A stretch of DNA of 64,000 nucleotides from Eledone cirrhosa. Lineage: Eukaryota. The DNA lies in assembly GCA_964016885.1 (NCBI GenBank), contig OZ024761.1, positions 1,178,001 through 1,242,000 on the forward strand. The letters run 5' to 3'. Numbering within the stretch: position 1 is the stretch's first letter; every line of letters begins with the position of its first letter. Below are positions 3,062 to 35,859 of this stretch, piece by piece. A program made the translations under genes and the position numbers. The notes under the pieces were generated by a model, which did not search any database, was not told the origin of the DNA, and worked only from the letters and a program-made list of their open reading frames with translations.

Positions 3062-3345
3062 AATAGAAAACGAAAAATCAATGATGCATCTGAACTCAAT
3101 TTATTGTGTGTTACAATTGTTTCCCCGGCGGACAGCTCGAGACGTGATCATTGTGTGGATCTGTCTGATTCTGGACCCAGGTTCGACGGACACTCTAATG
3201 ATTTCGGAGCATATTCCCTCCAACCTGCGGGTCCAGAATCAGACAGATCCACACAATGATCACGTCTCGAGCTGTCCGCCGGGGGAACAATTGTAAAACA
3301 CAATAAATTGAGTTCAGATGCATCACTGATTTTTCGTTTTCTATT
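3062..3345. mobile_element. Fold-back Penelope-like terminal-repeat cassette
   Basis: ~117-bp inverted arms (3062-3178 / 3229-3345) between TA-rich microsatellites. Contains a variant hammerhead. Confidence 0.6.
3108..3193 (-). ncRNA. Variant-core hammerhead-like motif
   Basis: gtgt-CCGTCGA-a-cctgg...ccggg-GAAA-CAATTG-TA-acac. All three stems form, but the core deviates from CUGANGA at positions 4 and 6. Confidence 0.45.
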
Positions 3346-3667
3346 ATATATATGTATGTATGTATGTATGTATGTATGTATGTATGTATGTATGTATGTA
3401 TGTATGTATCCGGGAGAGATGACCCCTTAGCCTTTGTTAAGGCAGAATTCTAGGAGAAGGAAAACTCTGATATAACACCTGCAACCCTGATGGTATCCAA
3501 TGATGTTGACTTGTTCTTCTTTTTGGTAAATATCATCTTGGTTAAGAGAGTGGGACTGGCTTTGTGCAGTGCCTTTGCTCACTATAAAAGCTTCACAGCA
3601 CAGGCATTGCTTTATATCTGGAGATCTCTCTGCACTTGTCATCACATGGTACCATGGGCCCTGCACT

Positions 3668-3822
3668 ATGTGTCAATAATGGTCACAAGTGTAGTCTTTG
3701 TACCAGAGTTTTCAAGTCGCTGGCTGGACTAAAAAGTCACATTCGTTCAGAGCATCGGTAGGGGTTCTCCTACATGGATATAAAGTAGTGGCCGTACTCG
3801 AAAACGAGTTGGCAGCCACCAT
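3668..3822 (+). mobile_element. 3' end fragment of RTE-type LINE
   Basis: CSLCTRVFKSLAGLKSHIRSEHR* then UTR and (ATGT)n tail. Second copy at 1475-1630. Confidence 0.6.
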
Positions 3823-3974
3823 GTATGTATGTATGTATGTATGTATGTATGTATGTATGTATGTATGTATGTATGTATGTATGTATATGTGTGTGTATAT
3901 ATTATATATGTAAATATCTAGGCAGTTATACAAATACACCTCAACATCTACATATATATATATACATACAAAAG

Positions 3975-4430
3975 ATCACCATCACCACCACCATCAGCAA
4001 TAATAGTAACCGCAACAACAACAATAAAAACAACAACAACAACAACACCGCCTCCACCTCCACCACTCACAGCAGTAACAACAACAACAGCAACACCGCC
4101 TCCACCAACAACGACAACACCAACAATATGAACAGTAGTAACAATAACAGTAACAACAATAACAACAGCACCACCATTGCCTCCACCACCACGAGCAACA
4201 ACAACAATAACAACAACAACAGTAATAACAGCAACGCCGCCAACACCACCACCACCACCAACAACAACAGTAACAACAGCAGCAGCACCACCACCACCAC
4301 CAACAACAACAACAACAGTAACAACAGCAGCAGCAGCACCACCACCACCAACAACAACAACAGTAACAACAGCAGCAGCACCACCACCACCACCAACAAC
4401 AACACCAACAACAACAGTAACAACAACAAT
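3975..4430. repeat. (AAC/CAC/AGC)n trinucleotide low-complexity tract
   Basis: Direct reading. Confidence 0.9.
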
Positions 4431-4750
4431 ATACCGTGTGCCCTATTTTCACAAAGATATATTTATTTAAGGAACTCAGATATGTTCACCTTGGACTAAA
4501 TAAATATTGATGTTGTTGTTCTTGTCGTCATCGTCATCGGGCCTCCTCCCCCTCCTCATTCACCCCCATTAACCCCCCCCCCCCCCCACACACACTTCCT
4601 CCTCCTGTTGTTGTTATTGTTGTTTTGTTTTACCCTACTTCACTCTTCATTCAGAAGACCTATGTGTGATCAAAGAAAGGAATTTCAGCTGTGACCAACC
4701 TGTCTTTTATTCAGGCATAGTGTACCTTGGACTACATTATTTAAGGACTT

Positions 4751-4912
4751 AGGGTCGGACGCCATGCTTTCTAGCATAGCTACGTCCCTTTACATTCTGA
4801 GTTCAAATCCCGCCGAGGTTAACTTTGCCTTTCATCCTTACGGGGTCGATAAAATAAAGTACCAGTAATGCACTGGGTAATTGATGGCCTTGTGCCAAAA
4901 GTGGAAACAATT
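4751..4912 (+). mobile_element. tRNA-derived SINE family A, 5'-truncated
   Basis: B-box GAGTTCAAATCCC and conserved block gcctttcatccttacggggtcgataaaataaagtaccag. attatttaagg is duplicated on both sides. Confidence 0.8.
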
Positions 4913-33033: not shown

Positions 33034-33169
33034 CATGGAACTCTTTTAACCATCTTTTGATCTTATATATTATTTATACTCCAGTCCTACAAACTGTAGA
33101 GTGCTACTTATCCGATATCTGCATTGCTTTATTGTACTATAATAAAACTCACCTCCTACATATATATAT

Positions 33170-33364
33170 ATAAGTTATTCCGGGTTGAATTGGAGGTAAC
33201 CACAGTAAGTAAGGTACTCAATACATAGCAGAATATAAAAGTTTTAATATAGAAGAGCTTCTACAAGACTAGAACTGTTTCATTCGTGAGAAATCATCAG
33301 GGAGCTCACTGATAATTTCTCATGAATGAAACAGTTCTAGTCCTGTAGAATCTCTTCTATATTA
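33170..33364 (-). mobile_element. Fold-back cassette with partial hammerhead
   Basis: Inverted arms 33245-33300 / 33309-33364. Minus strand reads CTGATGA-t-ttc-tcac-gaa-t-GAAA-CAGTT. Stem I is lost at the inversion point. Confidence 0.6.
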
Positions 33365-33561
33365 TATATATATAATATATATATATATATATATATACAT
33401 ATATGTATATATATATATATATATATATATATATATATATATATATATATATATATATATATATATATATATATATATATATATATATATATAATGAAGA
33501 GAGAAGGAACATTTAGATATAATTAGTAATAAAATGTATCATACCTAAACTGCTCCTAAGT

Positions 33562-33645
33562 TCCTCGACTACGTAGTTTCGTGGCATAAACAATATATCA
33601 TAAAGATATAGAGTCCTTGCGAGGTCTGCCGACTTATCAAGAGGA
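33562..33645 (-). ncRNA. Hammerhead with U3-A8 core
   Basis: Reverse complement of 34102-34190, 5 nt shorter in loop II. Confidence 0.75.
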
Positions 33646-34101
33646 TACCTCATTTTACTAGTCTCAAGAACGCGTCTACACGACGTGAGAAAGAATCCCA
33701 AAAGGCGGAGGGGGAGATAGTCACGCGATATAACGGTCGAGAAACAGAGCTAAGCCTCTTATAACCCCGAAGAAAATACCACGGAGGCGGAGGGGGTATT
33801 TATATCGAGGCCGTAGAAGAGGTGGTGAAGAAGGCGAGAAGTATGAGTAATGGAAGCTTTCCAGCTGTCCCCACACTTCAAAGATTGCTCGACCAGAGGG
33901 AGTTATTAACAATATATTTAGAAACACACAGATACATGCGGACACACACATATATACATGAATGCATCCGCACCCAACTGTGAGTTAAGAGGCTTAGCTC
34001 TGTTTCTCGACCGTTATATCGCGTGACTATCTCCCCCTCCGCCTTTTGGGATTCTTTCTCACGTCGTGTAGACGCGTTCTTGAGACTAGTAAAATGAGGT
34101 A

Positions 34102-34190
34102 TCCTCTTGATAAGTCGGCAGACCTCGCAAGGACTCTATATCTTTATGATATATTGTTTTGTTTATGCCACGAAACTACGTAGTCGAGGA
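34102..34190 (+). ncRNA. Hammerhead with U3-A8 core
   Basis: tcctc-TTGATAA-gtcggca...tgccac-GAAA-CTACGTAG-TC-gagga. GUC triplet and palindromic stem III. Confidence 0.78.
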
Positions 34191-35859
34191 ACTTAGGAGC
34201 AGTTTAGGTATGATACATTTTATTACTAATTATATCTAAATGTTCCTTCTCTCTTCATAATGTATTTTTAACTCTGATACTGGTTCAGTCTAGTTCAACT
34301 GAATTGGTCTGTCCCAGTCATTCATTGAGCAACATCGGTGAAGTTGGCACCCTTAACTCACAGTTGGGTGCGGATGCATTCATGTATATATGTGTGTCCC
34401 CGCATGTATCTGTGTGTTTCTAAATATATTATATATATATATATATATATATATATATATATATATATATACATATATATATACATATATATATATATAT
34501 ATATATATATATATATATATATATATATATATATATATATATATATATATGTATATACTCACACACACACACACACACACACATATATATTATATATACA
34601 TATATATATATACATATATACTATATATATATATATATATATATACAAGTCTAACCCATGCTAGCGTGGAAAGTGGATCTTAAACGAAGATGATGATGAT
34701 GATGATGATGATGAAGCATGGAAAATTGACATGACAATGGTGATGAAATACATACAGACACATTTACATACAGGACAAAACACAGAGACTCAAACACACA
34801 TATATACACAGACTCAAACACACATATATACACACACAACACACACATACACACACATCACACAAACACACACAAGTACATGAAAACACAAAAAAAGAAG
34901 AAAACCCAGCTAATATGTGACCAGTCTGTTACAATTTCAGGCCATCTTCTTCTATCGACAGTAAAGAAATAAATGTTTTATTCAGTTAAAATATATTTTG
35001 GTGCAGAGATTTGCCTGACAGTTAGCAAAATATTCATAACTTTTATATATATTTTCCACCCCTTCTCTGTAAACCCAGCCCTCCCTCTACCTCCTCTCTC
35101 TACCCCTCCCTCTACTCCCCCTCTCTATACACCCCACCCCCTCTTCTCCCCCTCTCCAGACCCTCCCCTTCCTCTACTCCCCCTCCCTCTTCTCCCCCTC
35201 TCTACCCCATCCCCTCCATCTACCCCCTTCTATACACCATCTTACTCTCCCCCTACCCCCTCTCTACATCCCCTCTGCTCTCCCCTCTCTACCCCCACCT
35301 ACCCCCTCTCAACCCCTCCTTCTACATCCATCTCTCTCTACCCTCCCCTCCCTCCCCTCCCAACAAGTTTGGTTTTAACTGATGTTGTTTTTTGGGGTTT
35401 TTTTAAATATGAGATTTCTATATTTAAAAGAAAAAAAAATTATCATCATCATCATCACTGCCACCATATGTAGTATACCACCAGCGCCACCACTTTTATC
35501 ATCACCACTGCCACCACCACTGCCACCACCACCACCACCACCACAACCATTATCATGAATGTCACCACCGCTATCATCACCTCCACCACTGCCACCACCA
35601 CTACCACCAGCACCATCATCATCATCATCATCATTAATGTCACCACTACCACCACCATCGTCACCATCGTCACCATCATCATCATCAATGTCACCACTAT
35701 TATCATCCTCATCATCATCATCACCACAACCACCACCATATAACACCACGAGCACAAGCACCACCACTACAATCATCATTATCACCACTGCCAACACCAA
35801 TACCACCTCTACCACCACTGCCACCATCAACAACATCGTCATAACCACTGCTACCACCA

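Follow-up and report, generated by a model that had tools for sequence, protein, structure and literature searches.

A bulged hairpin next to a TA word at the inverted ends of likely Hydra-type Penelope-like elements in Eledone cirrhosa

A 64,000-nucleotide stretch of the Eledone cirrhosa genome (GenBank assembly GCA_964016885.1, contig OZ024761.1, positions 1,178,001 to 1,242,000 of the forward strand; referred to as the window, with position 1 as its first letter) contains a series of short fold-back cassettes in (TA)n microsatellites, which are likely to be ends, either 5'-truncated or non-autonomous, of Penelope-like retrotransposons (PLEs) of the Hydra type. In each cassette one arm continues into a tail and the inverted arm lacks this tail. 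As judged from the sequences compared here, the position at which the tailless arm stops is tied, in five families, to a conserved bulged hairpin that begins just past it, rather than to microhomology with the TA target, and the hairpin likely marks a second start site of reverse transcription, which would explain the inverted ends. The inverted form was probably produced from two complementary DNAs (cDNAs), primed on opposite strands of (TA)n at two fixed internal starts on the RNA and joined head-to-head. The architecture, an inverted copy with a one-sided tail, is already known for PLEs, to which this work adds a conserved end module and the two-cDNA reading.

The DNA of the window is of animal type and abounds in (TA)n and (CA)n, 27% being masked as simple repeat. 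A masked self-BLAST of the window, with match starts up to 57.6 kb, yielded ten local fold-backs, nine of which (3062, 7995, 9352, 10445–12101, 22709, 27121, 32770, 33245 and 33494; Table 1) share one layout: with the 3' ends facing outward, the arm alignments read (TA)n, inverted arm, centre, arm, tail and (TA)n. Eight of these had been named in an original prediction made from the letters of the window, as fold-back cassettes whose tailless inverted arm joins (TA)n, and the self-BLAST and arm alignments bear out all eight. The tailless ends of all nine join (TA)n, as is also seen in reads, and the tail of 22709 adjoins (TC)n, with (TA)n after that. Tails are 43–91 nt long, with 171 nt in 33494. 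The description of one arm reaching a unique end while the other stops at TA-like sequence is correct in its general form but not for 33494, which is TA-like at both outer ends. The tenth fold-back, a near-perfect 59-bp hairpin at 15287–15345 whose core is (GT)/(AC) and whose flanks lack (TA)n, is the sole one outside this rule.

An inverted terminal-repeat form with a one-sided tail, as in the pseudo-long terminal repeats (pLTRs) of PLEs, is thus present in nine head-to-head cassettes, with tandem repetition in 9352 and 33494; according to the texts of PMC8557442 and PMC3846280, an inverted truncated copy and a one-sided tail are standard for these elements. The symmetric terminal inverted repeats of fold-back DNA transposons or miniature inverted-repeat transposable elements (MITEs) were not observed, one arm always being 43–171 nt longer at its outer end. 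Arms are 97.5–98% identical within a cassette versus 89–92% between the two cassettes of the family termed F1 (10445–12101 and 32770), and both arms of a cassette therefore derive from one template or one source locus. At the centres, the arms overlap by GTTTTAA, TAAG or GGCC.

At nine of ten junctions the stop has a TA close by, yet the match to the target is often slight. Stops are given in Table 1 as the sequence of the run-on copy, with a slash at the end of identity with the tailless arm. The comparison with random breakpoints along the same run-on copies used ten junctions, made up of one from each family, the tandem junction of the 12192 family and the second end of 33494. TA was present in the final 4 nt at 9/10 junctions, with 3.2 expected by chance (P 2e-4). 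The final 8 nt held 32 TA/AT steps in total versus 15.5 expected (P 4e-4). The ends are thus not random relative to TA words and the bias at the stop proposed in the original prediction is real, although 'TA-rich' is a generous term for 22709, the left end of 33494, 7995 and 3062. Strict in-phase overlap with the flank, scored by eye at the ten junctions, was 25 nt versus 10.1 expected (P 0.03), and 13 versus 7.7 (P 0.10) without F1 and 27121, which have the two longest words. The overlap with the target is 0–2 nt at six of the ten junctions, several of which read AT/TATA with an overlap of 0–1 nt, and TA scores that are equal or better occur at 74 of 108 positions in 22709 and at 259 of 422 in 33494A. 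The same stop had been noted three times in one family, at ~10430, ~12095 and ~32775; the F1 word GATCTTATAT does occur at all three, but the end at 12095 belongs to the additional cassette 10445–12101 and the copy at 10430 has no fold-back partner from F1. Inside the TA word, two registers ~7 nt apart are used by the ends of F1 (10432 and 12097 versus 32775), and the variant T33074A is present in 62 contigs of sequencing run X1.

Five families share a hairpin 0–10 nt past the tailless stop, composed of ACTC, an apical stem, a bulged T, TA or TT, then GAGT and RC. The apical stems vary in sequence with their pairing kept (CAGT/ACTG, TGCTCT/AGAGCA, GTCC/GGAC, TGC/GTA and one weak two-pair stem), as judged by eye, the tail hairpins being out of register in the MAFFT alignment. 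A descriptor derived from these same tails finds eight sites in the window, six of them 0–10 nt after a tailless stop, compared with 0.6 in shuffled sequence. In family 33245, reads restore the A-C-T-C of the hairpin (A33233G, in nearly all of the depth).

The published Hydra consensus sequences, inspected by eye in the supplement of PMC8557442, serve as the independent test of this descriptor. Hydra-2_Ajap from sea cucumber and Hydra-2_Amil from coral contain a hammerhead, a TA word and a hairpin of the form GCTC-stem-TA/TT-GAGC-AC, in which the basal A-U pair is swapped for G-C, a compensatory change. Hydra-1_Ajap has the hairpin at its 5' start and ATATATT at its end, and Hydra-1_Crog has looser versions of the hairpin at both ends; none was seen in Hydra-1_Amil and Hydra-1_Obim, which end 36–47 nt after the hammerhead cut site. 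The combination of TA word and hairpin is therefore found in 5/8 of the named families and, in the consensus sequences, in 3/6 exactly and one loosely, with two in which it was not seen. It is a feature proposed here and not a published Hydra criterion: the main text of PMC8557442 does not use the words 'hairpin' or 'stem-loop', and no link between the ends and a TA word was seen in the text available. Given the layout of hairpin and TA word in these consensus sequences, the stop likely lies at a tandem monomer boundary, and the tail would be the 5' start of the next tandem copy.

A TA word at the monomer boundary could also have no role in priming, being either a relic of (TA)n at the tandem junction or a homing site at which the endonuclease (EN) forms tandems, with the tailless end as the monomer 3' end set by structure or by EN resolution. 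The position of the word in Hydra-1_Ajap fits this, as do the AT/TATA junctions with little overlap; PLEs are described as inserting into or beside earlier copies, the protein of Poseidon makes a nick at ATT in the pLTR of its own element (PMC11167929) and, in the text of Craig 2021 (PMC8557442), the tail is ascribed to EN-mediated resolution. We regard this explanation as unlikely, as the two F1 registers inside the word are what pairing would give, and a neutral relic should decay, whereas the word recurs in diverged families and phyla.

Two fixed ends are also evident in sequencing data. Reads from four runs were overlaid on 32925–33304, which holds the arms and tails of F1 and family 33245; X16 is restriction-site-associated DNA sequencing (RAD-seq), a reduced-representation method, X5 is another organism, and all end counts are among the loose ends listed. 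For F1, (TA)n-joined ends lie at 33078 (58 contigs of X1 and two in X5) and 33161 (1218 reads of X16), and for family 33245 at 33240 (404 reads of X16) and 33160 (618 reads of X16 and 79 contigs of X1). End points recur, with two per family in these two families. Joints between opposite strands in family 33245 begin at many places, from 33211 to 33301. F1 and 33245 recruited thousands of contigs from host runs (13,572 from X1), and F1 depth in X1 declines from ~2.2 million in the arm to 0.7–1.1 million in the tail; the arm-to-tail depth ratio (~2–3 for F1 in X1, ~1 for family 33245) was dropped as evidence for being too crude. X16 reads that join 33301 back to 33237 via a 12–13 nt linker show that head-to-tail tandem copies of a ~77-nt hammerhead unit (33237–33301) exist elsewhere in the genome.

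The original prediction explained the cassettes by a single cDNA, primed at the tail end, that would fold back to copy its own sequence, with TA microhomology at the internal word then resolving it onto the second end of the target. A fold-back cDNA copies only its own content, and the tailless arm must therefore be nested in the tailed arm. Instead, the tailless arm extends further upstream than the tailed arm in 4/4 assignable cassettes: by ~25 nt in 32770, by a hammerhead core in 22709, by segment X (~230 nt) in 33494 and, in 10445–12101, likely by the 1.2-kb spacer 10715–11922, which is 67% pyrimidine on the + strand, where 11/12 segments of known sense exceed 50%. Among the remaining cassettes, 9352 and 27121 are symmetric and 3062, 7995 and 33245 have no assignable centre. 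Tailless ends without an inverted partner of their own (10361 and 31809), the short overlaps at six junctions and the abundance of equally TA-like positions elsewhere further weaken this explanation. The TA bias, the subfamily variants that the two arms of a cassette have in common and the palindromic centres of 9352 and 27121 agree with it, asymmetric loss of sequence from palindrome centres after insertion could reconcile it with the arm lengths, and the text of PMC3846280 proposes that rotifer Penelopes self-prime at palindromic junctions; on balance it appears improbable. TA-flanked inverted arms in DNA of very high simple-repeat content could also come from DNA transposons of the fold-back or MITE type that duplicate a TA target, or from misassembly at microsatellites. 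These origins are hardly credible in view of the one-sided tails, variable centres and sense hammerheads, and because raw reads of another sample and contigs of other organisms show the same ends together with joints between opposite strands. The arms also differ by 2–3% and are thus not read-through duplicates.

In the two-cDNA reading, we infer a tandem transcript as template, in which the 3' untranslated region (3'UTR) would be followed by the hammerhead, the TA word, the bulged hairpin and the start of the next copy. The hairpin may be bound and the protein positioned by it, this protein being a fusion of reverse transcriptase (RT) and GIY-YIG endonuclease that is possibly a dimer, as predicted for Poseidon from Anolis (PAc), and both strands of the self-complementary (TA)n would be nicked, as PAc does on AT-rich DNA. 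A proximal start at the TA word, 0–10 nt before the hairpin, would give the tailless arm, and a distal start 43–91 nt further on (171 in 33494) the tailed arm. The TA word may pair with the target primer to fine-tune the start; the two F1 registers favour such pairing, and the 0–1 nt overlaps and the homology-free start of PAc oppose it. The 3' ends of the cDNAs would then anneal via short homologies (GTTTTAA, TAAG, GGCC) and be filled in, resulting in a head-to-head repeat of variable length. What the sequences themselves document is the geometry, the recurrence of the ends, the TA bias and the conservation of the hairpin; nicking, the pair of cDNAs, protein binding and annealing are proposed.

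A related process is twin priming of L1, in which second priming occurs from the other target strand and the two cDNAs are joined by microhomology. In L1, the position of the second start varies, and the 3' part is not repeated in the inverted part. In the cassettes, by contrast, the second start is fixed and the 3' part is duplicated, and two templates or a tandem RNA are therefore needed. An application of twin priming to the inverted ends of PLEs was not found in the literature; a search for descriptions of this hairpin or of twin priming for PLEs, with subscription papers (e.g. Arkhipova 2006), Repbase entries, figure images and bioRxiv supplements outside its scope, likewise found none.

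PAc cleaves and extends both strands in vitro and is a predicted dimer, and two internal RT start sites delimit its tail (Frangieh et al. 2024, PMC11167929). As described there, PAc shares with the scheme proposed here the two internal starts bounding the tail, AT-rich targets, the cutting and extension of both strands, and an upstream hammerhead. It differs in that its starts have no homology to the target and are located inside the open reading frame (ORF), in an AC-rich stem loop, whereas in the cassettes the proximal end coincides with a target-like word, and a different hairpin, itself conserved, comes right after this word; an explanation of inverted copies was not seen in the text of that paper as available. 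In the accounts of Penelope from Drosophila virilis and from Adineta vaga (PMC2377424, PMC3846280), the variable-size inverted terminal repeats, the tail or 34-bp repeat at one end and the palindromic inverted junction are the same, but they are explained by self-priming on an antisense template, with no TA-word rule or hairpin seen in the text available.

The elements behave like Hydra-clade PLEs, and on sequence features they likely belong to this clade. The Hydra clade is described as inserting into (TA)n, with canonical hammerheads and a C-terminal EN that has a CxCX5C linker and lacks CCHH (PMC8557442); further criteria are the RT motifs RWK and DKT and the RT phylogeny. The cassettes share with Hydra consensus sequences the TA word and hairpin, and differ in having no ORF and in tails of 43–91 nt versus the 30–40 bp given for PLEs in that text. 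Target-primed insertion at (TA)n, as originally suggested, fits the clade, and the suggested connection with the inverted repeats known for PLEs also stands, the cassette structure having that form. Type I hammerheads with a short palindromic stem III, a form characterised as the PLE type (PMC6765202, as far as its text was available), lie on the sense strand in F1 and 27121 according to our own descriptor (ten matches versus 1–2 in shuffles) and in 33245 and 22709 by eye. Of 329 Rfam matches, the 150 listed include no hammerhead and are miRNA-like and below threshold, and a pattern scan of metagenomes for the F1-type hammerhead gave 0 loci.

The window yielded no RT sequence of a PLE. The only EN match near the cassettes is a degraded PLE remnant at 28531–29636, whose EN region matches protein P0003 (tblastn E 1.6e-9). 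Both contain a CxCX5C linker before GIY-YIG (the remnant when read across a frameshift) with no CCHH seen, and given this combination an assignment of the remnant as Neptune-like was replaced by Hydra. A word-index protein search with the remnant (75 aa) gave no scored relative, and a full HMMER search gave three matches, two of them repetitive, with no informative Pfam names. Retrozymes are defined by two or more tandem units in succession, each with a complete type I hammerhead; tandem units occur at 9417–10144 and 12192–12871, with one complete hammerhead found per array. The non-LTR retrozymes described in the available text of bioRxiv 10.64898/2026.07.22.740005 are likewise non-coding, with type I hammerheads and tandem units derived from PLE pLTRs, which the 12192 unit and the tandem joint of the 33245 family fit; they differ in that most cassettes here are head-to-head rather than tandem, and in the single complete hammerhead per array. 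The 12192–12871 array and 22205–22628 have a ~445-bp tandem unit with a hammerhead (−) at 12507 and an internal simple-repeat block, are retrozyme-like, and end at an internal TAT word.

Several points weigh against the assignment and the two-cDNA reading. The descriptor and inspection by eye found no hammerhead in 4/8 named families, and the hairpin descriptor found no hairpin in 3/8 (7995, 9352 and 33494); in cassette 7995, descriptor scans found neither. The hairpin descriptor was counted in the tails from which it was built, single hairpins are modestly stable (z −1.0 to −2.5) and the window's copy of 33245 folds otherwise. No RT or EN frame was found in any cassette (0 Pfam families in 15 cassette frames), as expected because truncated ends should lack the ORF, and we infer both clade and enzyme. 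The assignment of 10715–11922 to the tailless side is based on composition, and palindrome centres can lose sequence later, which could itself create arm asymmetry. The higher identity within than between cassettes would equally fit one strand copied from the other. The starts of Poseidon, non-homologous to the target in the account cited above, argue by analogy against a general role for annealing. The read ends comprise the listed loose ends, with 448 more unlisted; X16 covers a reduced representation of its genome, and X1 may come from the very sample that gave the window.

Table 1. Fold-back cassettes, tailless ends and PLE remnant in the window. Stops are written as defined in the text.
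Feature	Position	Strand	Structure	Stop of tailless arm
Cassette 3062	2984–3345		Tail 2984–3061 and tailed arm (−); spacer 3181–3224; tailless arm 3225–3345 (+), then (TA)n	TTTTCTATT/CAAT
Tail hairpin of 3062	3028–3054	−	ACTC-TGCTCT-GTA-AGAGCA-TA-GAGT-GC, 7 nt past stop	
Cassette 7995	7946–8272		49-nt tail and arm (−); 94-nt spacer; tailless arm (+)	ATTCTAA/CGTT
Cassette 9352	9352–10144		Tailless arm (−); perfect palindrome with GGCC at its centre; non-coding tandem unit of ~620 bp; then the second terminal repeat, with ~43-nt tail (+)	TTTTCATAT/GTAA
F1 tailless end	10361–10437	+	No inverted partner of own family; head-to-head with different sequence 10314–10360	F1 word at 10428–10437
F1 cassette 10445–12101	10445–12101		Tail and arm (−) 10445–10714, hairpin 10502–10528, hammerhead core 10633; pyrimidine-rich spacer (+) 10715–11922; tailless arm (+), hammerhead core 12004	F1 word at 12092–12101
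Cassette 22709	22709–22912		Tailless arm (−) with intact CTGAGGA core (by eye), missing from tailed arm; tail hairpin 22849–22870 (+)	CACTTCTA/CCTA
Cassette 27121	27118–27575		Near-perfect palindrome; hammerheads 27222 (−) and 27384 (+); 87-nt tail; hairpin 27491	TATTATATAT/TTAC
Degraded PLE remnant	28531–29636	−	C-terminal GIY-YIG region; ends at (TA)n ~38 nt after hammerhead-like half; not a cassette family	
Solo tailless copy, 27121 family	31809–31904	−	Hammerhead 31894; no inverted partner	
F1 cassette 32770	32775–33161		Tailless arm (−), tailed arm (+); hammerheads 32872 (−) and 32971 (+); hairpin 33078–33104; 86-nt tail	TATATATTAT/TTAT; F1 word inverted at 32775–32784
Cassette 33245	33172–33365		72-nt tail and arm (−), hairpin 33214–33234, hammerhead by eye (stem III ACAG/CTGT); tailless arm (+)	TTCTATATTA/AAAC
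Cassette 33494	33494–34429		Antisense B-X-A joined via TAAG overlap to sense A-C-B; unit of ~590 bp, circularly permuted; (TA)n at both outer ends	TCTCTTCAT/AATG and AAATATATT/GTTA

At 10314–10437, between two short TA runs, the F1 tailless end meets a 47-bp antisense end containing CTGATGA, with TCATCC common to both at the join, which is possibly a case of two different RNAs in one insertion. Another element between TA runs, at 2398–2959, has a hammerhead-like motif (−) by eye and an internal TATATATAT ~50 nt downstream of the motif. A further family (8284–8375 and 10213–10303) is represented by two copies, both of which end at an identical base next to a short TA run. The inverted copies 1482–1624 and 3674–3816 are 97% identical with ends adjoining (CATA)n/(TATG)n, and the element at 3411–3820 has (TATG)n on both flanks, which suggests another microsatellite-targeting family.

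The window also contains a short MITE-like element with GGGTGTC...GACACC inverted termini (14225–14311 and 31662–31749) and two fragments resembling long interspersed nuclear elements (LINEs), one with a stop-free RT frame (43430–44414, −; Pfam RVT_1, E 1.7e-23) and one frameshifted with a PHD finger (41380–42444, −; E 1.3e-6). Tandem arrays have a ~55-bp unit (44654–50649; 6 kb at ~95% identity), a 97-bp unit (~5100–6160) and a 60-bp CAC-rich unit (17142–18916).

The module of TA word and hairpin provides a means to recognise short non-coding Hydra-type ends and to set their boundaries. How tandem and inverted structures form and why insertion is biased towards microsatellites are listed among the open questions of PLE transposition in the text of Craig et al. 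2021 (PMC8557442). A broader proposal, which we put forward as tentative, is that PLEs of the Hydra clade have a cis-acting module, conserved in several animal phyla, in which a TA word that mimics the target directly precedes a bulged hairpin where monomers meet. Guided by it, a dimeric RT/endonuclease would start two cDNAs simultaneously, using both strands of (TA)n as primers. If true, this would provide a one-step mechanism for the inverted repeats, tails and microsatellite targeting of PLEs, with homology-assisted internal priming, unlike the homology-free start of Poseidon. The open questions named by Craig et al. become directly testable, as a cell-free PLE assay is described in PMC11167929, the conserved RNA element is short, shows compensatory changes and adjoins a fixed start, and (TA)n is a simple substrate.

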